Shown here piece after piece: positions 31,175 to 60,162 of a stretch of 64,000 nucleotides of DNA. The translations under genes and the position numbers were made by a program. Position 1 is the stretch's first letter. Every line of letters begins with the position of its first letter. The notes beneath the pieces are model-generated. The model was not told the DNA's origin and did not search any database. It saw only the letters and a list, made by a program, of their open reading frames with translations. Origin of the DNA: an uncultured Pseudomonadales bacterium (lineage in GTDB: Bacteria; Patescibacteriota; Microgenomatia; UBA1400; PJMF01); the NCBI GenBank assembly GCA_964556485.1, contig CAZKVV010000006.1, positions 8,072 through 72,071 on the forward strand, in the 5' to 3' direction.

Positions 31175-31253
31175 CTGATATTTCTGCTATAAATCCTCAT
31201 TAACCAAGCCTGGATGTAATCCTAAACCTATAACTTGGATTAGGCAAGGAAAT

Positions 31254-34950: not shown

Positions 34951-35961
34951 TTAGAATTCTGAGCCATGCACTTCTCGATATGATTTTCTTGAATCGAGGT
35001 CACCTGTTTGCTGCGGAAGGATTGCCGGCAACTCTGCAACGAATTTCTGTAGCTGAAAAAACAATCTTCTCTCTTCATCATCTCTTTTTTTTAAAGGTCT
35101 CATTGCTGCCCACACACTTGTTGGTAGTGTAATTCTGGTTACACCGTTATCAAATGCCTCTATCAAATCAGTTCTACATTTTTCATCCACTGGTGAGTAC
35201 CAATGTCCCTTTAAAAATGTTTGACCGTTACTTGTAGTAAATGTTTCCACACAAAGTCCAGTTATTTTCCCCCTAAATTTTACTGCAAGATGCTCATTAA
35301 CCATTAGTAAGGCTGAATCTGCAAGTGATCGTTCAAAATGTGTCTCAGATGATCCGCACAGATACCAAGCATTATTACTGGGTCTTAGTTCAATTTCGAG
35401 ATCGGTAAGTTGTGGTTGCAGTTTTTGCATGATGTTTGATGGCAAATTGTTAAGTTTTACCGCAGTTAAAATAATACCTATCTGGAAACGATGTGTCTTT
35501 GGATCATCTAATAAAAAATCAAGCAGTGTTAAAACAAATTCATTATTTAACTGCTCAGCCACTCGCTCAAGCTCAAAACCATACGAAAAGCATAAATCGC
35601 TTTCTAAATCATCGGATGCATGATTCATAAACAAAAAATTTAACAGAATTAATAATTCCTGGTTATTTTTTGCAAAGTTTAAAAAAGATGTGTACATTTT
35701 GATTTTTTGCTCATGAGAAAATGTTCTGAGAACAAGCTGCAATTGTCGATACCCATTGAGCGTTTCGGCAGCTTTAGACTCTAGATAAACGTGATCTAAA
35801 TCGTTAGTCACACCTTGAAACGCTTGATCTAGCATGTTTGCCACTACCCGTAGACGACCATATCTTGCTTCATCAGAAGCAGCAACTGCTTCTTCGTAAG
35901 TCATATCAATAAAGCGTGGTTGATGGTCTATAGGGGAAATTTCGCCGTGTTCTAGTGTCAT
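34951..35961 (-). CDS. hypothetical protein (336 aa)
   Basis: Intact ORF. No motif. Confidence 0.5.
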   Translation of the reverse strand: MTLEHGEISPIDHQPRFIDMTYEEAVAASDEARYGRLRVVANMLDQAFQGVTNDLDHVYLESKAAETLNGYRQLQLVLRTFSHEQKIKMYTSFLNFAKNNQELLILLNFLFMNHASDDLESDLCFSYGFELERVAEQLNNEFVLTLLDFLLDDPKTHRFQIGIILTAVKLNNLPSNIMQKLQPQLTDLEIELRPSNNAWYLCGSSETHFERSLADSALLMVNEHLAVKFRGKITGLCVETFTTSNGQTFLKGHWYSPVDEKCRTDLIEAFDNGVTRITLPTSVWAAMRPLKKRDDEERRLFFQLQKFVAELPAILPQQTGDLDSRKSYREVHGSEF

Positions 35962-36187: not shown

Positions 36188-36685
36188 GTGCATGCATATC
36201 ATTCCAACATGTCTGAATTCATCACAGAACTCCCAGAACAGCCTACTGAACCAATACAACCGATTCCGCAGGTTGTCTCATATCAAAATCCCCAACCACC
36301 CATACGAGACATGAAGCTTGTCAAAGCGCGTGTGTTGTACTGGTTACATAAAGTTGTTTCAGTTCTACTTATCCTGCACGGTATTATGGAAACCTGGGAG
36401 ATTGTGCAGTTTTTAGCTGTCGAATATCCAGAACTAAACCACTTATTAGAAATAAAGCAATTAACAGAAGTAGAACTTTCTTTCTTTGCAGTAACGGTTA
36501 TTCTGGCTGCAGTGGAAACCAGCATTTCATTTTTCTTGGCACACCGAATGCATCACATGTCAGAAGAAGCCGACCTCACTTTTGATTTCTTGATTTCAAC
36601 CCTGTTTCTTGTAGTCGCACCTCCAATCTCCAAATGGATTGCCCTGCAAGACTTCAGCTTTATCACCAGCTTACTGATAAAATAA
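36188..36685 (+). CDS. membrane hypothetical protein (165 aa)
   Basis: Three predicted TM segments. Confidence 0.45.
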   Translation: MHAYHSNMSEFITELPEQPTEPIQPIPQVVSYQNPQPPIRDMKLVKARVLYWLHKVVSVLLILHGIMETWEIVQFLAVEYPELNHLLEIKQLTEVELSFFAVTVILAAVETSISFFLAHRMHHMSEEADLTFDFLISTLFLVVAPPISKWIALQDFSFITSLLIK

Positions 36686-36693
36686 ATGACTGC

Positions 36694-37389
36694 ATGACAG
36701 CTCCAACGTACATACACAAAAAAAGTTCTCGAACCAACTCAATCAAAATTGCCCTAAACACTTCGGGCAAAGTAGTGGTAACCACACCTCATTTCATGCC
36801 TAAGTTTTTAATCGACCGTTTTGTGACTACCAACATGAACTGGATTGAAATTCAACAACGTGCATTCGAACTTAAAAAAAAACAAGCGGGTTCAACAAAT
36901 GATGTACACCTTTTTGGTAAAGTGTACACAAGAAAAGACTCATTTAGCACTTCGCTGCCCATCGGCATCAGCATTAGTGGTTCAAACTTACTCTTTAATC
37001 CCAGCAGTTCGCCACACTTGACTTCTTCAGAAAAAATAGAAGCAGAATACCGTCGCACCAAACTGAGATTTCTTAAGCACACCGCCAGTCAATATATTAT
37101 TCCCCGAACCCAGCAGCTTGCGCAGACCATGAAAACTACTTTTGGCAAAATTACGCTCCGGGAGCAAAAAACGAGGTGGGGCAGTTGTAGTTCGACAGGC
37201 AATCTCAACTTCAACTGGAATCTGGTGCAGTATGAACCAGCCATCATCGATTATGTGATCATTCATGAACTGGCACATCGAACCCACATGGACCATTCTC
37301 AAGCATTTTGGAATCTTGTTGCCAAGTATGATCCAGCGTATAAAGAACACCAGGGTTGGTTAAAAAGAAATGGCCTCTCAGTTTCGTAA
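36694..37389 (+). CDS. DUF45/YgjP-like (M48/SprT-like) zinc metallopeptidase
   Basis: C-terminal YVIIHELAHRTHMDHSQAFWNLV (HExxH...H). Confidence 0.65.
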   Translation: MTAPTYIHKKSSRTNSIKIALNTSGKVVVTTPHFMPKFLIDRFVTTNMNWIEIQQRAFELKKKQAGSTNDVHLFGKVYTRKDSFSTSLPIGISISGSNLLFNPSSSPHLTSSEKIEAEYRRTKLRFLKHTASQYIIPRTQQLAQTMKTTFGKITLREQKTRWGSCSSTGNLNFNWNLVQYEPAIIDYVIIHELAHRTHMDHSQAFWNLVAKYDPAYKEHQGWLKRNGLSVS

Positions 37390-37415
37390 CAGTCATTTCA
37401 ATAGTCATAAAAACT

Positions 37416-38096
37416 ATGTACATACTTCATGGAGATAACACCATAGCTTCGCGTGAAAAACGCGTATCTCTTGTTGCCGAAATGAAAGCGCAAGGCTACA
37501 AGGTTATAACGCTTGATGCCGCCAAACTATCCCGAGCTGAACTAGAATCCACCCTTAACTCTCAAGATTTATTTGGCGCTTCGCAATGTGTTTGTATTGA
37601 CGGATTGCATTCACTCCAAACTTCAGCACGAAAAAAAGAACTACTCACACTGCTATCTCAGCACACCAATGAGCCACTCATTGTATGGGAAAAAAGAGCA
37701 TTAACAAAAACCATGCTCAACATGTTTGCTGGAGCAACCATTTTAGAGTTTAAAGCCAGCAATACACTGTTTACTTGGCTAGAAAGTCTTGGCACCACCA
37801 CACCAAAGGCAAAAAAACTCGAGTTGCTCCATCAAGCAATTGCCTCTGACGGGGAATACTTGTGTTTTTTGATGCTCATTAGACAACTGCGAATGCTCCT
37901 TACCGTCCTCGAGCGCGGCGTCGTTGCTGGTCCGCCATTCATGGTCGCAAAAATAAAAAAGCAAGCTGAGTCTTTTACTACGCCACAACTATTAGAGCTC
38001 TATGAAAAACTTGCTTTACTAGACGAGCAAAGTAAAACTTCAAAAACGCTCCTACCACTGGCAGCTGAACTTGATCTTTTAACTATAAAGTTGTAG
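37416..38096 (+). CDS. holA: DNA polymerase III delta subunit-like (short form)
   Basis: MYILHGDNTIASREKRVSLV... N-terminus and overall helical clamp-loader-like composition. Weak similarity call. Confidence 0.45.
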   Translation: MYILHGDNTIASREKRVSLVAEMKAQGYKVITLDAAKLSRAELESTLNSQDLFGASQCVCIDGLHSLQTSARKKELLTLLSQHTNEPLIVWEKRALTKTMLNMFAGATILEFKASNTLFTWLESLGTTTPKAKKLELLHQAIASDGEYLCFLMLIRQLRMLLTVLERGVVAGPPFMVAKIKKQAESFTTPQLLELYEKLALLDEQSKTSKTLLPLAAELDLLTIKL

Positions 38097-38164
38097 ATTA
38101 TCATCATACTTTGTCATACAAAAGACTATGCTACTTTAGAACTGCAAAAAAAGAGGAGGATTGC

Positions 38165-39586
38165 ATGTATCAACTCGTTTCTAAGATAAATCCTAAAATT
38201 TTTAGAGGTTATGATCTTCGCGGTGTTGCAGATGTAGATTTGAGCGAAGATGTCTACTACACCCTCGGCAGAGCCTATGCAACCTTTTTGCATGAGCGAA
38301 GAATTCAAGAGGCGACAGTTGGTAGAGACAATCGTCTTACCGGTGAATCGTATGCAAAAGCATTGATCCAAGGGCTCAATGCTGGTGGTATCAACACTAT
38401 CGACATGGGACTATCACTGAGTCAAATTGTGTATTTTTCTTCCTACCATTTCAAAACCAAGGGAAGCGTCATGATTACCGCTTCTCACAATCCAAAAGAA
38501 TACAACGGACTCAAACTGGGCGTTGGCTACTCTGATACCATGATCACCGAAGAAATTCAGTACCTGAGAAAATTATGTGACCGTGGTCAATTTGTTGAAG
38601 GCAAAGGCACCAACAGACAAGAAGACGTATTCCCTGCCTACAAAGCGGATATCCTCAAGCATTTTTCGCTTGCAAAAAAATGGAAAGTAGTTATAGACAC
38701 TTGCAATACTACTTCAGGAAAATTTTATCCCGAACTACTACGTGCAGCAGGATGTGAAGTGATCGAGCAAAATACAACATTAGATGGTAGTTTCCCGCTA
38801 GGCGTTCCAGATCCAACTGAAGTAGAAGTGCTCGACCGACTCGCAGAAGGTGTCAAAAAAGCCAGTGCAGACATTGGGTTTGCCTATGACACTGATGGCG
38901 ATCGCATGGCCGTTGTAGATGATAACGGACAAACGCTGTGGATGGATTCAATAGTCGCCTTGTTTGCACAAGATGTGCTCGATTTCATGCCTGGCTCAAA
39001 AATTGTCTACAACACACTGTGTTCAAGACAAGTTACAGAAGCTGTCGAAAAAGCAGGCGGCGAACCAGTGATGTGGATGACTGGACATTCCTTTATTAAA
39101 GCGAAACTTAAGGAAGTGAGAGCGCCTTTTGGTGGTGAACTTTCTGGTCACATCTTCTTCATGGATAATTTTTACGGCCATGATGACGGTGCTTACGCAA
39201 GTTTGCGACTTCTCCAATATCTTGAAAGAAAAGGTCAGTCCTTGTCTCAAGCAGCAGCCCAGTTAGCACACTACGTCAGTAGCCCCGAAATCAAGTTTGG
39301 TCTTGCCGATGATATTAAGTTTGAGTTCATCAATACCAAAATTAGAGCAGAATTCAAAGCCCTCTGGCCAGATGCAAAATACATCGATATAGATGGCATC
39401 CGCATGGATACGGCAGAGAAAATGGCGATCATGAGAGCCTCCCAAAATGGCCCATACATCACAGTTAAGTTCGAAGGAAAAACCCAAGAACAATATGACG
39501 CGGTCAAAAAGCAACTCAAAGATATTTTAAGTAAATATCCAGAAATTAACTGGTCGGAAGGTGTAAATACACACGCTCTTGATTAG
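38165..39586 (+). CDS. phosphomannomutase/phosphoglucomutase
   Basis: GAGGAGG RBS. ITASHNPKEYNGLKL is the phosphoserine motif. GYDLRGV N-terminus. Confidence 0.85.
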   Translation: MYQLVSKINPKIFRGYDLRGVADVDLSEDVYYTLGRAYATFLHERRIQEATVGRDNRLTGESYAKALIQGLNAGGINTIDMGLSLSQIVYFSSYHFKTKGSVMITASHNPKEYNGLKLGVGYSDTMITEEIQYLRKLCDRGQFVEGKGTNRQEDVFPAYKADILKHFSLAKKWKVVIDTCNTTSGKFYPELLRAAGCEVIEQNTTLDGSFPLGVPDPTEVEVLDRLAEGVKKASADIGFAYDTDGDRMAVVDDNGQTLWMDSIVALFAQDVLDFMPGSKIVYNTLCSRQVTEAVEKAGGEPVMWMTGHSFIKAKLKEVRAPFGGELSGHIFFMDNFYGHDDGAYASLRLLQYLERKGQSLSQAAAQLAHYVSSPEIKFGLADDIKFEFINTKIRAEFKALWPDAKYIDIDGIRMDTAEKMAIMRASQNGPYITVKFEGKTQEQYDAVKKQLKDILSKYPEINWSEGVNTHALD

Positions 39587-39596
39587 AAACACTACC

Positions 39597-40370
39597 ATGA
39601 ACGCAGAAGCCGAACACATTCTGGCTGTGGGACTGGAGGCAGTCACCAGGGCAGAGAAAATAATTCTTGCACACTACAAAACAGGACTGCAATCTACACA
39701 AAAGCAGGATGGTTCGCCCGTAACTATTGCGGACCAAAAAGCTGAAGAAACAATTCGCAGCGTGGTTGGCGCAGCGTTCCCGACCCATGGTTTTATTGGT
39801 GAAGAATTTGCAACTGACAACCAAAAAGCAGTGTATCAGTGGATAATCGACCCGATCGATGGCACTAAAAACTTCATGCGCGGCGTGCCGTTCTTCACGA
39901 CTGAACTGGCAGTTTTTAAAAATGGCGTACCGTATATGGGCATCTCAAATATTCCCACACTCGGTCTTACTGTCACAGCTGTTCAAGGACATGGCGCCCG
40001 AGTTTCCAGAAGAAGAGTATCTGTTTCTACAACCGCTCGGCTTGAGGATGCCTACATTATTGTTGGCGGCTTAAAACACTTTAACAATCTCAAACATATT
40101 GAACAACTGCTCAAACTAACTTCAGATGTAATGTCTCTCAAAAGCCTAGGTGAAGCCTGGAGTTATCATTTGTTGGCTCAAGGTAATTGTGATGCTGTTA
40201 TCGAAGCGCAAACAAAAATCTGGGACATTGCAGCTCAATCTATGATTATTCCTGAGGCGGGTGGCATTGTCACAGATATCGCTGGAAAACCTATCGATCT
40301 GAATTCTACCAGCATGCTTGCAAGCACGCCAATACTCCACAAAGAATTACTGGTATACTTTGCTCAATAA
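39597..40370 (+). CDS. inositol monophosphatase family protein (SuhB/IMPase-like)
   Basis: WIIDPIDGTKNFMRGVPFF (DPIDGT motif) and GEEF upstream motif. Confidence 0.8.
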   Translation: MNAEAEHILAVGLEAVTRAEKIILAHYKTGLQSTQKQDGSPVTIADQKAEETIRSVVGAAFPTHGFIGEEFATDNQKAVYQWIIDPIDGTKNFMRGVPFFTTELAVFKNGVPYMGISNIPTLGLTVTAVQGHGARVSRRRVSVSTTARLEDAYIIVGGLKHFNNLKHIEQLLKLTSDVMSLKSLGEAWSYHLLAQGNCDAVIEAQTKIWDIAAQSMIIPEAGGIVTDIAGKPIDLNSTSMLASTPILHKELLVYFAQ

Positions 40371-40373
40371 TCT

Positions 40374-41618
40374 ATGCGAAAACCAACAGTCATCCTCATT
40401 GCAGGCGGCCAAAATAGTCGCTTTTTTCCCATAAACACAACCACTCACAAAGGATTTTTACCTTTATTGGGAAAACCATTGGTGGTCCGTACTATCGAGG
40501 ATCTTCACGAACAGGGGTTTTGGGATATTGTGTTAGTGGTTTCACCAAATGATTTTCAAGAACGAGGAATTGAGGTTGAACTTAGCAACTATCAACTTGC
40601 AGTTCAACCAAAAATAGTAGTACAGGAATCTGCCAAAGGTCAGGGAGATGCAGTGCTTTGCGCCAGAGAGCACCTAACTAATGACTGCATCTTATTGTCA
40701 CCTTACTACACATCTGCAGGTGTGCTCGCCGAAAAAGTATGGCAAGCAAAGCAATCTGGGGATAGTGACTGTGTATTCATGGGCACAAAAACAGAAAACA
40801 CCTCTCTGTACGGCATGCTTGCCTTCGACCCTCAAAACCACAACCGCGTAGTTGGAGTAGTAGAAAAACCAGAAGACAACCCACCATCAAACTTCAGAAT
40901 TAATAGTGTTTACTATCTCACCAAAGAGTTTGTAGAAGTGCTCGCCCAAACACCTATTAGTGAATATTCACTCGAAGAAGCGCTTAGTACCTATGCAGTT
41001 GCGCATAACTGCAGCTGGGTAGAGAACACCGACACCTTAGCATCTATCAAATATGCTTGGCATTTATTCGACTGCCTTTCCGTACTGTTTGAAACAGCAC
41101 AAAACTACATTAGCAAATCTGCAACTATCAGCTCCACCGCACTCATCGATTCTAAACAGGGGCCGGTAATTATTGATGATGGTGCAACTATCGGCGATTT
41201 TGTAAAAATCGTTGGACCTTGCTATGTAGGTAAACAAGCACTGATTGGTGATTATTCATTTGTGAGAGGTAGTACTGTTGAAGCAGATGCCACCATCGGC
41301 GCATACACAGAATTGGTGCGTTCAATCGTGCTTCCTCATGTTAGCATGCACTCCTGCTATATTGCCGATTCAATCATTGGCTACAACGTAAAAATTGGCG
41401 CAGGTCTTATTACCGCTAACAAACGATTTGATAGAAAAGAAATTCAAACACAAATTAAAGGCAAAATGGTAGATACTGCCAGAAAAAATCTTGGCACCAT
41501 CATTGGCAGTGACACTGCAACTGGAATTGGCGTCAAAACCATGCCTGGTATTTTAATTGGCTCAAAACAAGTTATTAAACCTGGAGAAATAGTTACAAGA
41601 AATATTCCACACGCGTAG
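40374..41618 (+). CDS. NDP-sugar pyrophosphorylase with C-terminal left-handed beta-helix (hexapeptide) domain
   Basis: VILIAGGQNSRFFP...KGFLPLLGKPLV N-terminus. Hexapeptide repeats in the C-terminal third. Confidence 0.7.
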   Translation: MRKPTVILIAGGQNSRFFPINTTTHKGFLPLLGKPLVVRTIEDLHEQGFWDIVLVVSPNDFQERGIEVELSNYQLAVQPKIVVQESAKGQGDAVLCAREHLTNDCILLSPYYTSAGVLAEKVWQAKQSGDSDCVFMGTKTENTSLYGMLAFDPQNHNRVVGVVEKPEDNPPSNFRINSVYYLTKEFVEVLAQTPISEYSLEEALSTYAVAHNCSWVENTDTLASIKYAWHLFDCLSVLFETAQNYISKSATISSTALIDSKQGPVIIDDGATIGDFVKIVGPCYVGKQALIGDYSFVRGSTVEADATIGAYTELVRSIVLPHVSMHSCYIADSIIGYNVKIGAGLITANKRFDRKEIQTQIKGKMVDTARKNLGTIIGSDTATGIGVKTMPGILIGSKQVIKPGEIVTRNIPHA

Positions 41619-41640
41619 TGTGACTTAGTAGAGGAGAGAA

Positions 41641-42735
41641 ATGTCAATGTCAGTCGCTAGTATTGATTCAAGAGAAAAAATAGCCAAAATCGATGTGTCA
41701 AACATGCTTGGGTCAATAGAAGCACTGGGCAAACAAATCGAACATGCCTGGAAAGATACGCGAGGAATAGAATTCACGCCAACAGCGGAAATTCGCAATG
41801 TAGTTGTCGCTGGTATGGGAGGCTCAGCATTGGGCGCTGATGTCATTTTGCACCTTTTTAAGGAGCAACTAACCGTTCCACTCTATGTAAATCGCACCTA
41901 TTCCTTACCTAACTACGTGGATGAACACACCCTTGTATTGCTGTCTAGCTATTCAGGTACAACCGAAGAAGTTTTAACCGTTGCAAAAATTGCTCAAGAA
42001 AAAAATGCACAAATAATGGTGATTGCATCGGGAGGAGACTTGGTTGAACTCGCAACTCAAAAAAACTATCCCCTCTACATCATTGATCCAATCCATAACC
42101 CCTCAGACCAACCAAGAATGGCAATTGGTTACTCGGTATTTGGCACTATTGCGTTACTCGCCAAAGCCGGAATTATTTCACTCACTGATGCAGATGTAGC
42201 TGCAGTTGTTGAAGTGATTAATCAAAAAGTTGTTGAATGCACTGTTGAGGTGCCAAGCGAAGCGAATCCTGCAAAAACCCTTGCATTCCTTACTATTGAC
42301 CGCTTACCTTTTTTTGTAGTAGGTGATTTCCTTGAGGGTGCAGCACATGTAGTCGCCAACCAGCACAATGAAAATGCAAAAGCATTTGCAAACTTCACTG
42401 TTGTTCCTGAGATGAATCATCACCTCATGGAAGGACTGCACTTTCCACTCAGTAATACATCAACCCATCTGTTTGTCTTTGTGCAATCAGTGCTCTACGA
42501 TCCTAAGATAAGTATTCGTATTAAACTAACTCAACAGATTGTCGAAGAAAACACGATTGAGACCACAGCAATTCCACTACAGTCATCAAGCAAACTCACG
42601 CAAGTTTTTGAACTGATTACGGTGTTTAGTTTTGCCGGATTTTATCTCAGCATGCTCGAGGGAATTGACCCAAGTCCAATTCCAACTGTAGATTCATTTA
42701 AAGAGATGCTCTCACGAGAAGCTCAAGACTACTAA
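41641..42735 (+). CDS. bifunctional phosphoglucose/phosphomannose isomerase (SIS domain, archaeal-type PGI/PMI)
   Basis: VVVAGMGGSALGADV...LLSSYSGTTEEVL are SIS motifs. Confidence 0.75.
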   Translation: MSMSVASIDSREKIAKIDVSNMLGSIEALGKQIEHAWKDTRGIEFTPTAEIRNVVVAGMGGSALGADVILHLFKEQLTVPLYVNRTYSLPNYVDEHTLVLLSSYSGTTEEVLTVAKIAQEKNAQIMVIASGGDLVELATQKNYPLYIIDPIHNPSDQPRMAIGYSVFGTIALLAKAGIISLTDADVAAVVEVINQKVVECTVEVPSEANPAKTLAFLTIDRLPFFVVGDFLEGAAHVVANQHNENAKAFANFTVVPEMNHHLMEGLHFPLSNTSTHLFVFVQSVLYDPKISIRIKLTQQIVEENTIETTAIPLQSSSKLTQVFELITVFSFAGFYLSMLEGIDPSPIPTVDSFKEMLSREAQDY

Positions 42736-42753
42736 ACTCTCCTAAAATACTAT

Positions 42754-44559
42754 ATGATGGTGGAGATGTCACAGCGAAGTGTTCTTCTGCCCGGAGATTT
42801 CGTTAAAACCAAGCAACAAGACCTGGGTGTGTTTGTTCTGTCGAGAATAAAGCTTGAGAAACTGCATGTTCAGTCACCAAAAATCGCCTGCATTCCGCAT
42901 TCTACACTCAAGCTCATTGCTGATGCGAACAACCTTTCACCCAAACTTTCAGCACTGCTCCGTGATATTAGTTTTTCTGACCCGGTCTCGCTCACCAAAA
43001 TAACCAAAACCATCACCCAACTCATTACTAAAGCCACGATTCCTCAGAGTATTACTCAAGAGCTGGTCCAAAACTATCACTCATACTTCAAGTCAAAAAC
43101 AATGCGTGTTTTTCCTGGCGACAGTGTCACTGGATCTCAGCAAACCCCATTCACCAAGATAAAAGGTGATGCAACAGTATTGCAGTCCTTTCTTGCCTGC
43201 TGGGCATACACTGTACAAAAAAGAGTATTACACACCAGAACGAGATTCCCCCACATCGCCTTGCACTCATTTCCCATGATTCTTGAGGAAGAACTAGATT
43301 CCCAAGCGAGTGGAGAAGTGTATACCAGAAACCCAGAAACGGGCAATAAAACCTCAGTGCTGATTACTACAACTGGAAAAAGCAGTTATGAGGTAGACAT
43401 TAGAACTTGGAATATCATAAAAAGGCATATCAGCCCTTCAGAAAATAACAAACAGCACATCCTCAGTGAAACACTGCTCAAAAGTATTGCCAGAATGGCA
43501 AATACCATAAAAAAACAGCATTTAAGTCATCAAAAAATTACTTGGGTTGCTGCGCAAAATCAATTGTACTGTGTAGCTGTTGAAGAATACACCCATCTGC
43601 AAGAACCAAGTGATACTCGACAAAAATCGATAACCAAACTCTATATTTCTGCTGGAAATCCACAGCAAATTCACCACAATGAAGAAACTGTTATAGATGG
43701 TGTTGGTCTGCTTAAAAGTGAGTTCACCTATCTTAAATATGGCACCCACCCATATGCGCTACTAAAAGGTCATGGAAAAGAACTGCTTTTTTCTAGCCTT
43801 CTTGATGCACTCACAATGTATTCTGATAGCGTGCATGGCAAACAAGTAATCCTTCGTTCACATGATCTCACCAGCACAGACTTGGCTCGGCTAGAGCATT
43901 CAACTACGTATGAATCGGTCGAAGCTAATCCCTTTATCGGTCATCGCGGCAGTCTACGAACAATCATGCAACCAGAACTTTTTAACCTTGAACTAGAGGT
44001 TCTTAAGGCATTTGTAAAGAAAAGTAGTGGGCATGTCGGCTTCATGCTGCCTTTTGCACGAACTCCGAGTGAGTTGCAACAACTCATTCGCATGTTAGAA
44101 GAAACCAATCTACGCTCACATACCAATTTTAGTGTTTGGTGGCAAATTGATACTCCAGAAAACGTACTTAATTGTGCGGCCTATCCATTGACAAAAATTG
44201 ATGGCATTAGTGTAAACATTTCCACAATCCAAAGCTTACTCTACGGTATTGATCCCACCAATCCTGCGGTGGCTGAAAGATATGCCACTGACACCTCAGT
44301 ACTGACAACCTTGCTCGCCACTTTGATGAAACAGTGCCGTTCATTAGAAGAAACACACGGGATCGCACACTCCATTCCAATCATTGCTCAATTCGAGCAG
44401 TATGACCCCCGACTTGTCCAAGCCTTAGTGCAACAAGGAATTGATGGCATTACCGTAAAGCCCAATGTTGCTCCATTGGCAAAAGCGTGTATCATTGATA
44501 TAGAAGAACAACCATTACTCGAGAAAACTACCACTAAATCAAACGCGATAGTACTATAG
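42754..44559 (+). CDS. PEP-utilising enzyme family protein (PEP synthase/PPDK-like N-terminal domain plus C-terminal PEP-utilizers TIM barrel). No recognisable central phosphohistidine swivel domain.
   Basis: GEVYTRNPETGNKTSVLI (PPDK_N-like) and IDGVGLLKSEFTYL...GFMLPFARTPSELQ (TIM barrel). No GG-x-TSHAAI motif. Only about 35 aa lie between the two domains. Confidence 0.65.
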   Translation: MMVEMSQRSVLLPGDFVKTKQQDLGVFVLSRIKLEKLHVQSPKIACIPHSTLKLIADANNLSPKLSALLRDISFSDPVSLTKITKTITQLITKATIPQSITQELVQNYHSYFKSKTMRVFPGDSVTGSQQTPFTKIKGDATVLQSFLACWAYTVQKRVLHTRTRFPHIALHSFPMILEEELDSQASGEVYTRNPETGNKTSVLITTTGKSSYEVDIRTWNIIKRHISPSENNKQHILSETLLKSIARMANTIKKQHLSHQKITWVAAQNQLYCVAVEEYTHLQEPSDTRQKSITKLYISAGNPQQIHHNEETVIDGVGLLKSEFTYLKYGTHPYALLKGHGKELLFSSLLDALTMYSDSVHGKQVILRSHDLTSTDLARLEHSTTYESVEANPFIGHRGSLRTIMQPELFNLELEVLKAFVKKSSGHVGFMLPFARTPSELQQLIRMLEETNLRSHTNFSVWWQIDTPENVLNCAAYPLTKIDGISVNISTIQSLLYGIDPTNPAVAERYATDTSVLTTLLATLMKQCRSLEETHGIAHSIPIIAQFEQYDPRLVQALVQQGIDGITVKPNVAPLAKACIIDIEEQPLLEKTTTKSNAIVL

Positions 44560-44572
44560 GAAACACGATCAC

Positions 44573-45883
44573 ATGCCCGCCATTCAAGGACTCTACGCCC
44601 GAGAAATATTAGATTCTAGAGCTATTCCAACAGTGGAGTGCACACTTTGGTTGGACAATGGTGCCATTGTTGCTACCAGTGTGCCTACCGGCACTTCAAT
44701 TGGTAAATACGAGGCAAAAGAATTACGCGACGGAGACTCCACACACATGGTTGGGAAGGGAGTGCTCCAAGCAGTTAACTACCTAAACACCACTATTTCC
44801 CAAGCGCTCATTGGTAAAGACCCTACCAAACAATTCGAACTTGATCAAATGTTGGTAGATCTTGATGGTACGGATAACAAATCGAAACTTGGTTCTAATG
44901 CTATCCTCGCAGCCTCACAGGCAATACTTAAAGCTGGCGCCCTCAGTCTCAATGTACCGCTGTACTACTATGTACAACAAAAATACCAACTCACCAAAGA
45001 CTTAATTATACCTAGCTGCATCTACACCATGATTAACGGTGGAGAACACGGAGCAGATAACTTGGACATTCAAGAATTCGAGATTATCCCAGCTAGTCAC
45101 ATTAATTTTGAAACATCTCTCAATATGGCAGTGACGCTCTATCATAAGATAGAGGAAGTCTTGCAAATGAAGGGAGCAATCCATTCAACTGGAATTGTGG
45201 GCGGGTTCACACCCAACTTATACAGCAATACAGACGTGTTTGAAATCTTAGTTGAAACGATTAAAGCGAGTCCCTACACCTTTGCGCAAGACATTTTCTT
45301 TGGCATTGATGCCTCGGCTGCACAGTTTTATTCTAATGGAAAATATAGTCTCAAAGACCGCCAACAAGCATATTCACCTGCTGAACTTCTCGAATACTAT
45401 AAAAAACTGCGCGACCTATATCATGTTTTTTACATTGAAGATCCATATCAGGAAGATGATAAAGAAGCCTGGACAAAAATTACCAATGAAATTGGTGATA
45501 CCACGAAGATCGTGGGAGACAGTTTGCTAGTCACCAACAAAGATAAAACAGCTGCAGCTATTAGCGAAAAAACCTGTAACTCAGTGTTAATCAAACCAAA
45601 CGAGACTGGCACAATCAGTGAAACAATCGAAGTTATTCGATTGGCAAAAGAAGCAAACTGGCAAGTTATCGTTTCTCATCGCAGTGGTGAAACCAATGAC
45701 GATTTCATTGCAGACTTTGCGGTTGGCGTCGGAGCCGATTACACCAAATTTGGTCCACCAAATAGAGGTGAACGTGTCGCTAAATATAATCGTCTGTTGC
45801 AAATTAACCAAGAAATACTGCATAGTCAACAAGGTGGGGCAGTACAGCAGCCAGAAGCAACTTCTCCAGACCTTACTACATAA
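44573..45883 (+). CDS. eno: enolase
   Basis: AREILDSRAIPTVECTLWLDNGAIV N-terminus and SHRSGETNDDFIADFAVGVGA active-site region. Confidence 0.95.
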   Translation: MPAIQGLYAREILDSRAIPTVECTLWLDNGAIVATSVPTGTSIGKYEAKELRDGDSTHMVGKGVLQAVNYLNTTISQALIGKDPTKQFELDQMLVDLDGTDNKSKLGSNAILAASQAILKAGALSLNVPLYYYVQQKYQLTKDLIIPSCIYTMINGGEHGADNLDIQEFEIIPASHINFETSLNMAVTLYHKIEEVLQMKGAIHSTGIVGGFTPNLYSNTDVFEILVETIKASPYTFAQDIFFGIDASAAQFYSNGKYSLKDRQQAYSPAELLEYYKKLRDLYHVFYIEDPYQEDDKEAWTKITNEIGDTTKIVGDSLLVTNKDKTAAAISEKTCNSVLIKPNETGTISETIEVIRLAKEANWQVIVSHRSGETNDDFIADFAVGVGADYTKFGPPNRGERVAKYNRLLQINQEILHSQQGGAVQQPEATSPDLTT

Positions 45884-45913
45884 ATACTGTATACTCACAA
45901 GAAGAGTATCCGT

Positions 45914-47611
45914 ATGACTGACACTCAATCAAAACCGCAACCAATTATCAGTGGCATGCCATTTAATGCCACGTACCAAAAACGCGACTACGCTGGTCCC
46001 AAACCAGTCGTACTCCTTATTCTCGACGGCTGGGGCATTGGTCCAAACAATGCCGGCAATGCCATTCTGCGAGCTAACACGCCAAATATGGATAGGTATT
46101 GGCTCTCCTTTCCACACACTCAAATCACTGCAAGTGGAGAAGCCGTAGGCTTACCAAGAGGTGAGGATGGAAATACTGAAACTGGACATCTTAACATCGG
46201 TGCAGGACATATCGTCTACCAAGATCTACCTCGTATAAATATGGCTATTGCCGATGGATCATTCAACAATACCAGCGCCTTTATAAACGCTGTCAATCAT
46301 GCTCGACGATATAACTCCAATCTGCATATCATGGGCCTCATTGGTGCAGGTGGCGTGCACTCAAATATTGAGCACTTATACGCACTTCTAAACTTCTGCA
46401 AACAACAACAAGTGCAAAATGTGTTTATCCACGGGTTCACTGATGGTCGTGATTCACCACCAACATCTGGCGTCAACTATGTTCAGCAAATTATTGACAC
46501 CTGTGAAACACTGGGCGTAGGCCATTTAGCTTCACTCATGGGTCGTTTCTATGCGATGGACCGTGATAAACGCTGGGATCGTATCGAAAAAGCATACAAT
46601 GCATTAACTATCGGAAATGGCACCGTTGTGTCCGATCCAGTTGCATTCCTGCAAGAACAGTACGCCAACGGCATCACCGATGAATTTATCGAACCAACCA
46701 ATATTAGTGATTCGCAAGGCAATGTTCCAGTCGTAGGTGAAAACGATGCAGCCATCTTTTTTAACTATCGTATCGACCGTCCACGCGAGCTCACCAGAGC
46801 GTTCGTGATGCCCGATTTCGAGCAGGGAATAACAGCAGAAGCCTTTGACCCATACACAGAAAAATACGAAAAAACAAACATCCAGAAGCAACACCATGTC
46901 GAAACCTTTGTCAGACAAAAAAAGGTAAACAATTTATACTTTGTGACTATGACAAAGTATGAAGAAAACTTACCTACCGATATCGCATTTCCTCCTCAAA
47001 ACATCAAAAATCCACTCTGTCGCGTTATTTCAATGAATGGACTGAGTCAACTGAGAATGTCTGAAACCGAAAAGGAACGGTTCGTAACGTTTTACATGAA
47101 CGGCCAACAGGAAACTATCTATCCAGGTGAGGATCGAGTCATTATTCCATCAAAAGGTGTGAAATCGTATGACCTTGCCCCAGAAATGAGCACTCCTGAA
47201 ATTGCTGAAGAGATGATTGCGCGGATTAATCAGCAAAAATATGACGTAATTATTGCAAATATTTGTAATGGCGATATGGTTGGTCATACCGGCAATCTCG
47301 ACGCAACTATAAAAGCATGTGAAATTTTGGATGAACACGTCGGTAAAATTGTGAATGCCGTCTATCAACTAGGTGGAGTAGTCATGATCACTGCAGACCA
47401 TGGAAATGCGGAAGAACTGATCAATAATCAAACTGGTGAGATCGACACTGAGCACTCAATTTATCCAGTACCGCTACTTGTCATCGGCCAACAATTTGCA
47501 AATCGTCCCATTATGCTGCCAACAGGCATTCTTGCTGATATTGCTCCAACCATGCTCAAAATTCTAGGCTTGCCAAAACCAGACAGTATGACTGGTAGAG
47601 CTCTCATTTAA
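45914..47611 (+). CDS. gpmI: 2,3-bisphosphoglycerate-independent phosphoglycerate mutase
   Basis: 565 aa. VVLLILDGWG N-terminus and ITADHGNAEEL C-terminal metal-binding motif. Confidence 0.95.
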   Translation: MTDTQSKPQPIISGMPFNATYQKRDYAGPKPVVLLILDGWGIGPNNAGNAILRANTPNMDRYWLSFPHTQITASGEAVGLPRGEDGNTETGHLNIGAGHIVYQDLPRINMAIADGSFNNTSAFINAVNHARRYNSNLHIMGLIGAGGVHSNIEHLYALLNFCKQQQVQNVFIHGFTDGRDSPPTSGVNYVQQIIDTCETLGVGHLASLMGRFYAMDRDKRWDRIEKAYNALTIGNGTVVSDPVAFLQEQYANGITDEFIEPTNISDSQGNVPVVGENDAAIFFNYRIDRPRELTRAFVMPDFEQGITAEAFDPYTEKYEKTNIQKQHHVETFVRQKKVNNLYFVTMTKYEENLPTDIAFPPQNIKNPLCRVISMNGLSQLRMSETEKERFVTFYMNGQQETIYPGEDRVIIPSKGVKSYDLAPEMSTPEIAEEMIARINQQKYDVIIANICNGDMVGHTGNLDATIKACEILDEHVGKIVNAVYQLGGVVMITADHGNAEELINNQTGEIDTEHSIYPVPLLVIGQQFANRPIMLPTGILADIAPTMLKILGLPKPDSMTGRALI

Positions 47612-47744
47612 TTCTCATCTGATATATTTTGATTCTAAAAGATGCGCTTGCCAGTTAGGCTTATCTTCGGTTATTGTGAATATAGTTCGGGAAACATACG
47701 CCCGTAATAAAAGAATCAAACTAATTCATACAAAGGAGAAAGCC

Positions 47745-48365
47745 ATGGCAGTCACACTTTACAAAAGGCAGCGGCAAATTGTTGATTTTATTGGTCAATA
47801 TATCCAAAAAAATGGCTATTCGCCTACGTTGAAAGAAATTGCAGATTCAATTCAGGTATCTTCACTTGCTACAGTTCATGAACACTTACAAGCCTTGGAA
47901 CGCAAAAAAGTCATTAAAAAACATGAGGGTGCGGTGAGGGGTATCGAGTTGGTAGACAGAACCTTTGTCAAGCTTGCCGACACTGTCGATTTGCCACTAT
48001 TAGGTTTTATCCAAGCTGGTTCTCCCATAGAGCCATATCCAGACGACACTGCTACATTCAAGGTTTCACCAGAAATGATTAGTGGCAAAAAACGATCCTA
48101 TGTTCTGCAAGTTAAGGGAACTTCAATGATCGAGGATCATATTCAAGAGGATGACTATGTGGTAGTTGAGGAAACAAGCTCAGTTAATGACGGCGACATT
48201 GTGGTCGCACTGCTCGATAATGGTCTTGCCACGCTCAAGCGCTACTACAAAGAGGTAACTCGCATTCGTCTTGAGCCAGCAAACTCGTCAATGAGCCCAA
48301 TTTATGCCACCAATGTGCAAATCCAGGGAAGAGTAGTGGGTCTTATTCGAAAATTCAGGTACTAA
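47745..48365 (+). CDS. lexA: LexA repressor (S24 peptidase)
   Basis: AAGGAG RBS. N-terminal wHTH (TLKEIADSIQVSSLATVHEHLQALERKKVI). A-G cleavage region (IQAGSPIEP). GTSM Ser and LKR Lys catalytic dyad. Confidence 0.85.
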   Translation: MAVTLYKRQRQIVDFIGQYIQKNGYSPTLKEIADSIQVSSLATVHEHLQALERKKVIKKHEGAVRGIELVDRTFVKLADTVDLPLLGFIQAGSPIEPYPDDTATFKVSPEMISGKKRSYVLQVKGTSMIEDHIQEDDYVVVEETSSVNDGDIVVALLDNGLATLKRYYKEVTRIRLEPANSSMSPIYATNVQIQGRVVGLIRKFRY

Positions 48366-48378
48366 TCAAAGCGGATAG

Positions 48379-48939
48379 CTACTTGGAGACATCGAATAAA
48401 GCCTCATCATGACCTTCATGAAAGTTTACAAAACTTCTCAACACGTAGAGATAGTCGGATAACCTATTGACATACTGCAACACGATCTCCGGAATGTGTT
48501 GCTGTTGAGAGATGGCTACAATAGCTCGCTCTGCTCTACGACACACTGTTCTGGCAATATCAAGACGGGCGGCAGACTCAGTCCCACCTGGATACACAAA
48601 CTTCTGAGTCCAGTTTTGTTGCATACTTCGTTGTAAAGCTAATGAATTTCTTTCCAAAGTATCTAACTCACCAGTAGCTAACTTCACCGTTTTGGCGTCT
48701 GCGCGTGCTAACAGAGCACTGAGTAAATATATATTTTTTTGAATATTTCGAACTGCAACACACTGTTCGGGAAGCTCTTTTGGCAAAGTCACTAGTGCAA
48801 ACCCCAACCAAGAGTTAAGTTCATCTAAGTCGCCAAGCACTTCAAAAATTGGAGCAGACTTTGGCAGTCGGACCCCATCAATTAGCCCTGATAATCCTGA
48901 GTCGCCGCCTTTTGTAGAAATGGATGTCAGCTTTGCCAT
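48379..48939 (-). CDS. ATP:cob(I)alamin adenosyltransferase (PduO/MMAB type)
   Basis: TKGGDSGLSGLIDGVRLPKSAPIFEVLGDLDELNSWLG is the PduO-type ATR N-terminal signature. An alternative start at 48957 is possible. Confidence 0.8.
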   Translation of the reverse strand: MAKLTSISTKGGDSGLSGLIDGVRLPKSAPIFEVLGDLDELNSWLGFALVTLPKELPEQCVAVRNIQKNIYLLSALLARADAKTVKLATGELDTLERNSLALQRSMQQNWTQKFVYPGGTESAARLDIARTVCRRAERAIVAISQQQHIPEIVLQYVNRLSDYLYVLRSFVNFHEGHDEALFDVSK

Positions 48940-49682
48940 TTGCCGCCTTTCTGCCATGGAGCATTCTTTAATAATGGAGCAAACACATCATCATCGACAT
49001 CGATAGCATAAGCATCAATTTCTGCTTGGGTCGGTGGAGAATCTTGAAAAGTAATTGCCGTAATGTCTGTGACTAAACAAAGAGGAGTGGATTCTGCAAC
49101 TTCTCCCATTTCTAACACTGCTGCAGCTGCTATACCCTGTGAAATAGCCATTTGAGTCATTTTTATTTCACGGCCATACAAATCATTTTCACCAATTCTG
49201 TTGAAAAGTGGTTCAAAACCACAATGGGAAAGCGCCCTACCAACCACTCCCCAAAGTAACGGCATTGAGACGCTGTCAGTAATTACGACGCCAACTTCTT
49301 TGACGTTGTACTGTTCACGTAAAAAATGCCAAATCTTTTGCGCGCTAGCATAGGCATTTTCTGGCAACAATAATAATCCGCTTTCAACATTAGATTCATC
49401 CACACCTGCATTTACACTTAACATATTGCCACTGATGGTCAGAATGGTGCTCATTTTTGAAACTGAAGGAGGCGTGTACTGTTGGGCTTGGCTAAAAATA
49501 ATGGCTTCTTTTTCTGCTCGGGTTCGAGGTTCTGCAACAGCAGCATTTTCCCATAACGAAACCACCTTAGAAGTAACTACTAACACAGATCGTTCCTCCA
49601 ATGTTGGAATTGCTTCAGCTATGACAGCCAGTAAATCGCATCCTGTTGTTAGTCGAGGGGTTTTGATGGCGTTACAATTCAT
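48927..49682 (-). CDS. CofE-like coenzyme F420-0:L-glutamate ligase family protein
   Basis: LLAVIAEAIPTLEERSVLVVTSKVVS...VITDSVSMPLLWGVVGRAL matches the CofE/F420_ligase domain. The track ORF starts at 49727. Confidence 0.7.
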   Translation of the reverse strand: MNCNAIKTPRLTTGCDLLAVIAEAIPTLEERSVLVVTSKVVSLWENAAVAEPRTRAEKEAIIFSQAQQYTPPSVSKMSTILTISGNMLSVNAGVDESNVESGLLLLPENAYASAQKIWHFLREQYNVKEVGVVITDSVSMPLLWGVVGRALSHCGFEPLFNRIGENDLYGREIKMTQMAISQGIAAAAVLEMGEVAESTPLCLVTDITAITFQDSPPTQAEIDAYAIDVDDDVFAPLLKNAPWQKGGKWQS

Positions 49683-49751
49683 TGCTACCTTCACATAGAG
49701 TCTAAATTTTAGAGTCAAAATGATCATACCATATCAGGTATAATACACTCC

Positions 49752-52004
49752 ATGCGGTTCAAACTTAGATCACCCTATCAACCAGCTGGAGACCAACCAA
49801 ACGCAATAGCTGCGCTGGTAGATGGTATTGAACACAACAAACGACATCAGACATTGCTCGGGGTAACTGGCTCTGGAAAAACCTACACTATGGCAAGTGT
49901 AATCCAGAAAGTGCAAAAACCAACCCTCATCGTTGCTCACAATAAAACCCTTGCAGCACAGCTCTACCAAGAGTTTAGAGATTTTTTTCCTGAAAATGCC
50001 GTCAGCTACTTTGTGTCTTACTACGATTACTATCAACCTGAAGCGTATATTCCCTCCACCGATACCTACATCGAAAAAGAGTCAACGATTAACGACGAAA
50101 TTGACAAACTTCGATTAGCTTCCACTACTAATTTATTGACGAGACCAGATTCAATTGTCATCGCCTCAGTTTCTTGCATCTATAACTTGGGTTCGCCTGT
50201 TGAGTACGGTAGATATTTGCTGCGTATTGCTGAAGGCGAAATCATTTCTAAAGAAACGATTCTCCTTCAGCTTGCAAACTTGCAGTATGACCGGACCACC
50301 ACCGATTTTAAACGCGGCACCTTTAGACTCCGAGGAGATAGCATCCAAATTTGGCCTGCATATGAAGAGAAGGCCTTGCGAATCGACATGTTTGAAAACA
50401 CCATAGAGACACTGACTTGGATTGATCCAATTTCTGGTCAAGCACTACCAATCAATGGTGATGCAACGAATAGAAAAAAAGAAGTTATCATTTATCCAGC
50501 TAAGCACTATGTCGTTAATCCACAGAATCAAGAAGAAGGCATTGCACAAATAAAAGCTGACCTACAACAACAACTTGCGCACTTCCGCTCAAAAGGCAAA
50601 AATATTGAAGCATATCGAATAGAACAAAAAGTGAACTATGATCTCGAGATGCTCAGAGAGTTTGGCTTTGTAAATGGTATTGAAAACTACTCACGCTATT
50701 TCGATGGCAGATTACCAGGATCAGCTCCCTTTACGCTCATCGATTACTTCAATGAAACCAACAATGTCTTTGGGACAGGCGATTTTTTAACAATTGTTGA
50801 TGAAAGTCACATCACGCTTCCACAGATTAGAGGCATGCATAATGGCGATAGAGCTCGCAAAGAAACCTTGATTGAGTATGGTTTCCGATTACCAAGTGCA
50901 CTCGATAATCGGCCGCTTACCTTTGAAGAGTTCTTGGGTCAAACCAAAACCATGCTCTATGTATCCGCAACCCCAGAGAAATTAGAGCTATCACTTTCTG
51001 GTAATGAGCCTGTTGAACAACTTATCAGACCAACTGGCTTGGTTGATCCAAACATAGAACTACGACCCACTGAGAATCAAATCGAGGATCTGGTGATTGA
51101 GATCATCACTCGTAAAGAAAGAGGACAGCGGACACTCGTTACCACACTCACCAAAAAAATGGCTGAGGCACTAACCGAGTATCTAAATAACACCCACAAA
51201 ATTGACAGTTTAGTTGCAAGCTGGCAAAAGCGTCAAAAGCAAACCATTGCCCAGGAAGACAATGAGCTGCTCATTTGGCAACAAGCTGAATTACCAATTG
51301 CGCAGATGAGTATTGGTCCAATCGATCCAAAGTTCTATCACCACTTAGGACAAAATAACTATAAGCCAGCAAAAATAGAGTATCCAAAGGTTGCCTACCT
51401 GCACTCAGACATTGAAACACTTGAGCGCTCCGACATTCTAGATGACCTGAGACGCGGTGTGTATGACGTTGTAGTAGGTATTAACTTACTGCGTGAAGGC
51501 TTAGACTTACCAGAAGTCACGCTTGTAGCAATTCTCGATGCAGACAAAGAGGGATTTCTCAGATCTCGCACATCGCTTATTCAAACCATGGGTAGAGCTG
51601 CAAGACATATTGAGGGGCATGTGATTCTGTATGCAGACCGACTAACTGGCTCAATGCAAGTTGCCATTGAAGAAACACTACGACGACGAAACACTCAAAT
51701 TGAACATAACACCAAAGAGGGTATTACGCCTCAAACCATTATTAAACCAATTCGTGAGCGAATGCTCAAAAAGAAACAAGAAGAAGAGCTTGCTGCAAAG
51801 AAAAAGAAAAAATCGGGACTGGTTGTGCAACTCAACAAAACCGAACAAATAGATCTACAAAAAGTGGTGGTACAAGATCTGACTCCCTATGACAAACGCT
51901 CACTAAGCACAAAGCTAAAACGCCGCATGAATCAAGCAGCTAAGGACATGGACTTTGAATTGGCAGCGATCCTCAGAGATACTATCAAAGAGCTGCAGAC
52001 TTAA
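49752..52004 (+). CDS. uvrB: excinuclease ABC subunit B, carrying an about 70-aa insertion relative to typical UvrB
   Basis: YQPAGDQPNAI...GVTGSGKT Walker A, helicase motifs, and C-terminal UVR motif DFELAAILRDTIKELQ. 750 aa. Confidence 0.95.
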   Translation: MRFKLRSPYQPAGDQPNAIAALVDGIEHNKRHQTLLGVTGSGKTYTMASVIQKVQKPTLIVAHNKTLAAQLYQEFRDFFPENAVSYFVSYYDYYQPEAYIPSTDTYIEKESTINDEIDKLRLASTTNLLTRPDSIVIASVSCIYNLGSPVEYGRYLLRIAEGEIISKETILLQLANLQYDRTTTDFKRGTFRLRGDSIQIWPAYEEKALRIDMFENTIETLTWIDPISGQALPINGDATNRKKEVIIYPAKHYVVNPQNQEEGIAQIKADLQQQLAHFRSKGKNIEAYRIEQKVNYDLEMLREFGFVNGIENYSRYFDGRLPGSAPFTLIDYFNETNNVFGTGDFLTIVDESHITLPQIRGMHNGDRARKETLIEYGFRLPSALDNRPLTFEEFLGQTKTMLYVSATPEKLELSLSGNEPVEQLIRPTGLVDPNIELRPTENQIEDLVIEIITRKERGQRTLVTTLTKKMAEALTEYLNNTHKIDSLVASWQKRQKQTIAQEDNELLIWQQAELPIAQMSIGPIDPKFYHHLGQNNYKPAKIEYPKVAYLHSDIETLERSDILDDLRRGVYDVVVGINLLREGLDLPEVTLVAILDADKEGFLRSRTSLIQTMGRAARHIEGHVILYADRLTGSMQVAIEETLRRRNTQIEHNTKEGITPQTIIKPIRERMLKKKQEEELAAKKKKKSGLVVQLNKTEQIDLQKVVVQDLTPYDKRSLSTKLKRRMNQAAKDMDFELAAILRDTIKELQT

Positions 52005-60159: not shown

Positions 60160-60162
60160 CTC

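Follow-up and report, generated by a model that had tools for sequence, protein, structure and literature searches.

The stretch of DNA analysed here (the window, 64,000 nucleotides of contig CAZKVV010000006.1 from an uncultured member of the Patescibacteriota) encodes a protein that derives from phosphoenolpyruvate (PEP) synthase, PpsA, and lacks both the phosphohistidine swivel domain and the key catalytic residues of its parent that were checked. The gene is complete, occupies 42754..44559 on the + strand and specifies 601 amino acids, as established from the list of open reading frames (ORFs), Pfam, AlphaFold and Foldseek; an original prediction, made from the letters alone, had given exactly these coordinates and described the product as a PEP-synthase-like protein without a swivel. 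The comparisons reported below firmly favour a dikinase-dead descendant of the ppsA gene of Microgenomates/Patescibacteria that has stayed in place, and canonical PEP synthase chemistry is very probably not performed by it. The preferred explanation, to which we assign a probability of roughly 0.55, is a pseudoenzyme with a role in lower glycolysis: the mouth of its barrel would bind a phospho- or carboxylate metabolite independently of Mg, and the protein would work as a sensor, regulator or partner.

Both folds, the sequence profiles and positional orthology place the protein in the PpsA/PPDK homologous superfamily. The proposed PPDK_N-type ATP-grasp region and PEP-utilizers C-terminal barrel were both recovered by Pfam and Foldseek. 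PPDK_N (PF01326) matches residues 31–206 above the gathering score (E 5e-15, profile positions 13–202 of 328), and PEP-utilizers_C (PF02896) matches residues 284–582 over nearly its full length (E 2.5e-25). The N-terminal ATP-grasp-like domain, in which the nucleotide/Mg motifs are lost, spans about residues 1–281 (42754..43596, +) on the combined evidence of Pfam, Foldseek and an alignment that reaches KITW at 261–264 and AVEE at 275–278. The C-terminal PEP-utilizers_C TIM barrel covers about residues 292–590 (43627..44523, +) according to Pfam, Foldseek, the AlphaFold strands and the site table; its catalytic set is lost and its active-site face remodelled. In the AlphaFold model (mean pLDDT 85.6, pTM 0.53), two well-folded domains are joined by a short low-confidence linker at residues 282–288, and the first barrel strand begins at residue 295. 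The best Foldseek matches are the PEP synthases 2ols, 9dae and 8a8e. The C-terminal half reaches target-normalised TM-scores of 0.88 (8a8e_A) and 0.82 (9dae_A) against the PEP-binding barrels of PpsA, and the N-terminal half resembles the ATP-grasp domains of PpsA and Rph (Rph 5hv6, target-normalised TM-score 0.70), the family profile also matching 5hv6 with E 3.5e-23. No significant similarity to other enzyme families was found in Pfam or NCBIfam. None of the functional hallmarks of PEP synthase (EC 2.7.9.2) examined is present: the swivel with its His, the ATP-site motifs and the catalytic set of the barrel are missing, and the scores on the NCBIfam equivalog models stay below the curated cut-offs, at 185 bits for NF005057 (cut-off 598) and 174 bits for TIGR01418 (cut-off 740). 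An assembly or frameshift artefact is ruled out, as the identical architecture recurs across many independent assemblies.

The absence of the swivel, the domain that carries the GGxTSHAAI motif, was confirmed by profile searches with positive controls. Pfam found no PF00391 match in the protein even at E ≤ 10. The swivel domains of 26 canonical relatives were used to build a custom hidden Markov model (HMM), which was run with all filters off; it scored 188 bits on canonical PpsA and 50–70 bits on relatives with a degenerate swivel, gave no match to the window protein and, among 612 six-frame segments of the window, returned a best match of only E 2.4. Similarly, tblastn with seven swivel domains against the window gave no match. 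With Pfam, tblastn and the custom HMM all negative, a hidden or divergent swivel is ruled out. The spacing of the flanking motifs agrees with a clean excision: AVEE (residues 275–278, equivalent to QSRP) and LLKSEF (residues 319–324, equivalent to LLRAEF) lie 40 residues apart, compared with 175–182 in canonical PpsA. About 140 residues are cleanly missing, that is, the entire swivel together with its linkers, and the gap against canonical PpsA amounts to about 148 alignment columns. The junction left behind lies at about residues 279–294 (YTHLQEPSDTRQKSIT, 43588..43635, +), as located by the alignment gap, the motif spacing, the low pLDDT at 282–288 and the negative HMM result. The earlier estimate of about 35 residues between the two domains was roughly right, given the linker and the start of the first barrel strand in the AlphaFold model.

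The loss of catalytic motifs is not confined to the swivel but extends to both remaining domains, as seen in an alignment with canonical PpsA of related bacteria of the candidate phyla radiation (CPR). At the N-terminus, the GGKGANLGE nucleotide-phosphate loop survives as GVFVLSRIK, in which only G25 is kept (residues 25–33, 42826..42852, +; motif table and map). By alignment and motif map, RSSATAED is reduced to FPGDSVT (residues 120–126, 43111..43131, +), followed by a deletion of about seven residues relative to canonical PpsA; DIEW has become KITW, without the Glu (residues 261–264, 43534..43545, +); and AVEE (residues 275–278) is the relic of QSRP (QxRP). In the alignment, the Lys of DFKTNE is replaced by Thr. 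The YTRNPETG core is present. The barrel is affected no less. M-x-E-x-P (MVEIP) has turned into QIDTPEN (residues 464–470, 44143..44163, +; alignment and site table), with the Mg-ligand Glu replaced by Asp, and across the degenerate clade this position holds Asn, Ser, Asp, Thr or Ala. NISTIQ (residues 488–493, 44215..44232, +; alignment and motif map) is the relic of GSNDLT, with the Asn and the Mg-ligand Asp gone. DPTN stands in place of DRDN (residues 500–503, 44251..44262, +; site table), so that the PEP-binding Arg is now Pro, and IAQ in place of CGQ (residues 544–546, 44383..44391, +; alignment and site table), so that the catalytic, proton-donor Cys is gone. All 26 canonical relatives in the alignment keep each of the catalytic residues lost in the window protein, the columns being invariant. 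We take the lost positions to be K340, E431, N454/D455, R465 and C502 of Enzyme I (EI) of the phosphotransferase system (PTS), together with the nucleotide/Mg site of PPDK/PpsA; the columns behind these EI-numbered equivalences are invariant in the 26 canonical sequences. Both the role of the barrel Cys in catalysis and the swivel mechanism have been described for PpsA (bioRxiv 10.1101/2022.08.11.503304). The original description of the N-terminal domain as degenerate, with GGK absent and the TRNPETG core kept, was therefore accurate, but listing the barrel as simply present missed that its catalytic set has also gone. That canonical PEP synthase or PPDK function is excluded without the His swivel, leaving a non-canonical role, had been argued from the missing domain, and the loss of the catalytic residues adds to that argument.

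The window protein belongs to a large radiation in Patescibacteria. A profile search of 1.84 billion representatives at 50% identity yielded 717 matches at E ≤ 1e-30; the best 150 of these 717 and 28 proteins from an initial search for relatives gave 175 distinct sequences, which were classified by motif. The family profile yielded no further members when it was run in a second, word-indexed search of proteins. Fully canonical sequences account for 26 of the 175. Another 51 are fully degenerate and have no swivel (type A, about 590–645 residues, like the window protein), 47 are fully degenerate and carry a swivel-like domain (type B, about 700–740 residues), and 51 are fragments or partial degenerates, P0095 and P0101 among them. 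The fully degenerate 50%-identity representatives thus number at least 98. None of 30 type B representatives has a His in the phospho-carrier column. A shifted catalytic His was considered and ruled out as a conserved carrier, since a His nine residues downstream occurs in only 17 of the 30.

On a crude neighbour-joining tree based on Poisson distance, the fully degenerate sequences group together in a single long-branched cluster, within which members of types A and B are intermingled, and Fitch parsimony on this tree requires at least 12 changes in the presence of the swivel. The pattern suggests that a dead swivel was deleted repeatedly, after catalysis was lost, the number of independent deletions being only indicative. 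Type B proteins (for example P0008 and those of related loci L011–L013) share with the window protein the clade, the synteny, the lost motifs and derived barrel residues (NTPEN, DPxN, Y510), but differ in keeping a recognisable swivel without the phospho-carrier His and in evolving more slowly. Type B accordingly looks like the evolutionary stage that would have preceded swivel deletion. A further set of homologues (P0095, P0101, P0109, P0111, P0168 and L015 6001–7986) is swivel-less yet has intact ATP-grasp motifs (GGKGANLGE, RSSATAED, DIEW and QxRP); some of them also keep the barrel Cys, and they occupy the same slot upstream of eno. They could have arisen by separate deletions of the swivel, or they could form another class that may still be partly active.

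Named members of the family come from Ca. Pacebacteria and the 'Patescibacteria group'. Close relatives carry the NCBI label 'hypothetical protein'. In IMG/JGI, dead members (P0008, P0184, P0085) are labelled 'pyruvate, water dikinase' or 'phosphoenolpyruvate synthase/pyruvate phosphate dikinase', which is likely a systematic over-annotation that affects CPR metabolic reconstructions.

What the barrel has kept and what it has gained were counted over 51 type A and 30 type B representatives, 81 fully degenerate sequences in all, with the 26 canonical sequences for comparison. The NPxLGxRG loop is kept as NPFIGHRG (residues 392–399, 43927..43950, +; alignments), including R398, the equivalent of the substrate-binding Arg, and G396, R398 and G399 are invariant in two alignments. 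Among the degenerate representatives, Arg is kept at R368 (the Arg of YRATD) in 65 of 81, at R398 in 69 and at R436 in 80, and position 321 (K321, the Arg of LLRAEF) is Arg or Lys in 53. In active relatives, the basic residues equivalent to K321, R368, R398 and R436 hold the anionic groups of the substrate. Several other positions are derived and conserved. Position 467 is Thr in 71/81 (V, I or L in canonical sequences), 477 is Tyr in 72/81 and 510 is Tyr in 79/81 (both mostly Phe), 501 is Pro in 72/81 (Arg in 26/26), and 302 is Asn in 50/81 (mostly Glu). The new charged residues are more variable: E469 is Glu in 56/81 (69%; Ser in canonical sequences), position 569 is Lys or Arg in 53/81 (65%; Asn or Ser), and E548 is Glu in 35/81 (43%; Pro). 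In the AlphaFold model, the derived residues and the retained K321, E323, R368, R398 and R436 are found where the barrel strands end C-terminally, or at most a few residues away, which is the active-site face in such barrels. As judged from strand positions and homology, these conserved residues would cluster into one pocket. In the N-terminal domain, no conserved derived polar position was found across the degenerate clade. Thr, Pro and Tyr make up most of the derived conserved set, in which no Lys, His, Cys or acidic pair is both new and invariant, so that a binding or closed site fits better than new catalysis. A class I aldolase-like Schiff-base site, considered because of K569 and a weak NCBIfam match (E 0.09), is ruled out by the lack of an invariant Lys.

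The gene lies in a block of glycolytic and sugar-nucleotide genes, all on the + strand, and the order given in the original prediction was reproduced by Pfam. Upstream are PGM/PMM (pmm, 38111–39586), an IMPase-family phosphatase (39579–40370), an NDP-sugar pyrophosphorylase with an LbH domain (40374–41618) and a PGI/PMI-type SIS isomerase (41641–42735); downstream follow enolase (eno, 44573–45883), cofactor-independent phosphoglycerate mutase (gpmI, 45914–47611) and then, by Pfam, a LexA gene. The gaps around the gene are 18 nt to PGI upstream and 13 nt from its stop codon to eno, and it seems to share a transcript with eno and gpmI. A promoter and terminator scan of 36.0–48.6 kb gave counts no higher than in shuffled sequence.

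The closest full-length relatives of the protein are canonical Microgenomates PpsA, for example from Ca. Amesbacteria, and a canonical PpsA with all motifs occupies the slot between PMM/PGI and eno–gpmI in the Ca. Amesbacteria loci L005 and L006. Degenerate proteins, from 67% down to about 30% identical to the window protein, fill the same slot in the window and in loci L001–L004 and L007–L017. The gene is therefore a positional ortholog of ppsA and not a paralog recruited to the cluster. The upstream order is kept in L001–L004, L014, L016 and L017, and enolase lies directly downstream in every related locus with an identifiable downstream gene. Since the neighbourhood was inherited from the ancestral ppsA, the glycolytic position itself is no evidence for a new metabolic role; the position within a glycolytic and sugar-nucleotide block was thus correctly recognised, but its use as a pointer to a new role does not hold. 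Further, synteny is long-range: it extends over 36634–52004 of the window in comparison with L001 and L003, though the proteins in question are only 30–40% identical, and includes ygjP-like and holA-like genes, the sugar/glycolysis block, lexA, cobalamin adenosyltransferase-like and F420-ligase-like genes, uvrB and uvrA. With synteny conserved over such distances in the lineage, adjacency alone is weak evidence for functional coupling. The loci also differ in detail. Directly upstream of canonical ppsA in L005 (5637–8000) and L006 (1884–4262), PGM/PMM and the PGI SIS domain are fused into a protein of about 790 residues, whereas in the clade of the window they are separate genes with the IMPase-family and NDP-sugar pyrophosphorylase genes in between. 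L006, of the Ca. Amesbacteria type, has two convergent enolase-family genes, 6565–7830 (+) and 7807–8844 (−), with a 3′ overlap of about 24 nt, the second being shorter (345 residues).

Evolutionary rates were compared with those of neighbouring genes in the same genome pairs. Between the window and L007, identity is 67% for the protein under study, 92% for enolase and 83% for PGI; between the window and L001, the values are 40%, 83% and 70%. Relative to the adjacent enolase, the rate of non-synonymous substitution (dN) is 1.0-fold for canonical PpsA (L005–L006), 1.5–2-fold for type B and 3–6-fold for type A, the last being also 2–3 times the rate of PGI. The ratio of dN to synonymous substitution (dS) is mostly 0.07–0.15, and 0.33 in the most divergent pair, as rough values because dS is saturated (> ~1.1 in every computable pair). 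Every locus examined has an intact ORF, and the N-terminal domain evolves about as fast as the C-terminal one. These figures indicate relaxed but clear purifying selection on the gene and its relatives and argue strongly against a neutral pseudogene.

Two of the marks of a pseudoenzyme, loss of the catalytic residues of the parent and retained purifying selection, are seen in the protein on the sequence evidence. The history proposed is that a ppsA lineage lost the ATP-site residues, the phospho-carrier His, and the Mg ligands and proton-donor Cys of the pyruvate/PEP site, after which the now useless swivel would have been deleted, apparently several times independently. What remained would be a two-domain pseudoenzyme, an ATP-grasp shell and a TIM barrel under purifying selection, whose barrel keeps the basic residues K321, R368, R398 and R436 and presents the derived N302, T467, E469, Y477, P501, Y510 and K569 on the same face. 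Its most likely mode of action is non-catalytic: the remodelled mouth of the barrel would bind a PEP-, pyruvate- or phosphoglycerate-like metabolite with no need for Mg, and the protein would sense or regulate the putatively co-transcribed module of enolase and phosphoglycerate mutase, or act as its partner, and would no longer convert pyruvate and PEP into one another. The losses of domain and motifs, the orthology by synteny, the family size, the relaxed purifying selection and the derived conserved sites are observed, whereas binding of a ligand and a role as regulator or partner are inferred from the retained Arg/Lys residues and from gene adjacency. The pseudoenzyme explanation is preferred because the anion-binding basic residues persist while all residues of the chemistry are gone, and because a core enzyme would not be expected to evolve so fast. 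Some points weigh against it. The regulatory or binding role leans on an adjacency that was inherited from the ancestral ppsA–eno arrangement, which makes that part of the argument weak, and the new charged residues E469, E548 and K/R569 on the active-site face could equally form a new catalytic site. Moreover, the estimates beneath it are rough, with saturated dS behind dN/dS, a crude neighbour-joining tree and a clustering into a pocket that was judged from strand positions and homology.

The charged residues lead to the main alternative, possible but rather unlikely, that the protein is a neofunctionalised enzyme, in which E469, E548, K/R569, Y477 and Y510 with the retained Arg residues would make up a new, probably metal-independent site that converts a glycolytic or sugar-phosphate substrate by some other reaction. 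Conserved derived polar residues at or near the C-terminal strand ends, purifying selection across the whole protein, the apparent co-transcription with eno and gpmI, and the retention of the gene in streamlined genomes by at least 98 divergent representatives are all compatible with such an enzyme. Further, pyruvate kinase has been reported in only about one-third of CPR genomes, in a study that explicitly allows for divergent substitute enzymes (Jaffe et al. 2020, PMC7304191). However, the new charged residues are far from invariant (69%, 43% and 65% for E469, E548 and K/R569), which is unusual for catalysis, and an N-terminal domain without a conserved polar site across the clade makes nucleotide-linked phosphotransfer unlikely. 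A rate of 3–6 times that of enolase and 2–3 times that of PGI is also high for a central metabolic enzyme, and Pfam and NCBIfam give no significant similarity to another enzyme family. In its boldest form, this alternative would have the protein convert PEP, or a neighbouring intermediate, independently of swivel and metal, and so replace pyruvate kinase in CPR genomes without it; we consider this improbable. Pfam scans of 37 larger ORFs of the window found no pyruvate kinase, PPDK or second ppsA.

The remaining two explanations fare worse. A decaying ppsA pseudogene, whose only use might be to space the genes of the pgi–eno operon or to couple their translation, could account for an evolution much faster than that of the neighbours, for motifs and domains lost patchily and repeatedly across lineages, and for the 'hypothetical protein' label of relatives in NCBI. 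CPR genomes are strongly streamlined, and full-length ORFs are nevertheless intact in all loci and in dozens of 50%-identity clusters despite saturated dS (> ~1.1), at a divergence where a neutral sequence of 1.8 kb would be expected to gather many stops and frameshifts. The low dN/dS (about 0.07–0.15, a rough value), the equal constraint on both domains, the conserved derived residues and the confident AlphaFold model (mean pLDDT 85.6) also speak for a functional protein, and a functionless relic is very unlikely. Hardly any credence can be given to a split dikinase, in which the protein would carry out PpsA chemistry together with a separately encoded PF00391 carrier, as the original prediction had suggested. 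Split or multi-subunit dikinases such as phenylphosphate synthase do exist, and the structure of a stand-alone ATP-grasp protein, HpeI (9goj), deposited as 'phosphoenolpyruvate synthase', has been solved. In the window protein, however, both sites with which a carrier would have to interact are gone, the ATP-grasp domain having lost its nucleotide/Mg residues and the barrel its Mg ligands, Arg and Cys. The swivel-bearing type B sisters have the His in 0/30, so that phospho-His transfer was apparently abandoned while the swivel was still present, and no swivel-like (PF00391-like) sequence was found in the window, nor any swivel among the annotated genes of the related loci examined. The suggested partnership with a His-domain protein was thus not upheld.

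Comparison with known systems sets the pseudoenzyme proposed here apart. It resembles PpsA, especially P0014 of Ca. Amesbacteria, in its ATP-grasp and barrel folds, its best sequence and structure matches, its pgi–eno slot, and the retained NPxLGxRG loop and G-x-G-L-L-(R/K)-S-E motif, but has no swivel, has the nucleotide motifs, Mg ligands, DRDN Arg and catalytic Cys replaced, and evolves 3–6 times faster relative to enolase. With PPDK and PTS Enzyme I it shares the PEP-binding TIM barrel superfamily (EI C-domain, target-normalised Foldseek TM-score about 0.7), but its sequence matches to these are much weaker than to PpsA. PPDK and EI cannot do without the His domain and the Mg/Cys site, neither of which the window protein has; the swivelling phospho-His is the defining chemistry of the family. 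Rph and the prodiginine ligases PigC, RedH and HapC are likewise products of PpsA-family remodelling, by domain exchange, with similar ATP-grasp domains. These proteins still have ATP-grasp catalysis and the His swivel, whereas their barrel was dropped or replaced; the window protein, in contrast, keeps the barrel and has neither swivel nor ATP site. As far as is known, the separate parts of split dikinases keep their catalytic residues; in this respect the window protein, in which they are lost, differs from both phenylphosphate synthase and the HpeI type (9goj). A literature search found no prior description of a catalytically dead or swivel-less PpsA lineage.

Other parts of the window show features of their own. 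The stretch 16000–31500 has a low GC content (0.32–0.37, against 0.41–0.43 for most of the rest) and contains an AAA_21/AbiEii-like ATPase (16340–17539), tyrosine-recombinase (Phage_integrase) genes (21091–22065 and 30116–31174), a protein with Schlafen/AlbA_2, HATPase_c_4 and Fic-like_C domains (23088–24572, −) and a Ser/Thr protein kinase of 769 residues (25215–27524, −); it looks like an integrated mobile or defence island. At 55609–62411, Pfam identifies a cassette of Transglut_core (55609–57492), a 7TM_transglut membrane protein (59197–60159), the sugar-transfer-associated ATPgrasp_ST (60163–61446) and a MATCAP-like metallopeptidase (61446–62411), which we take to resemble a 7TM-transglutaminase/ATP-grasp peptide-modification neighbourhood known from comparative genomics. 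Large ORFs of up to 825 residues without a Pfam match at E ≤ 1e-5 are found at 5746–8223 (−), 1057–2097 (+), 3619–4695 (+), 18044–19222 (+), 32930–33976 (−) and 34951–35961 (−); such ORFs are typical of the 'dark' proteins of CPR bacteria.

Where pyruvate kinase is missing, metabolic reconstructions of CPR bacteria often call on PEP synthase to complete lower glycolysis or gluconeogenesis (PMC7304191), and in lineages that carry dead members of this family the pyruvate–PEP step is probably absent or done by something else. The family presents an apparent natural time series, from canonical through partly degenerate to dead with a His-less swivel and finally to swivel deleted, all in the same slot and at a rising rate. 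That a catalytically dead protein of about 600 residues, with a putative conserved and remodelled pocket, seems to persist in highly streamlined genomes points to a function tied to lower glycolysis. Should it instead prove to be a new enzyme family that acts on PEP or a neighbouring glycolytic intermediate without phospho-His, it could provide the last step of glycolysis that CPR genomes without pyruvate kinase seem to lack.

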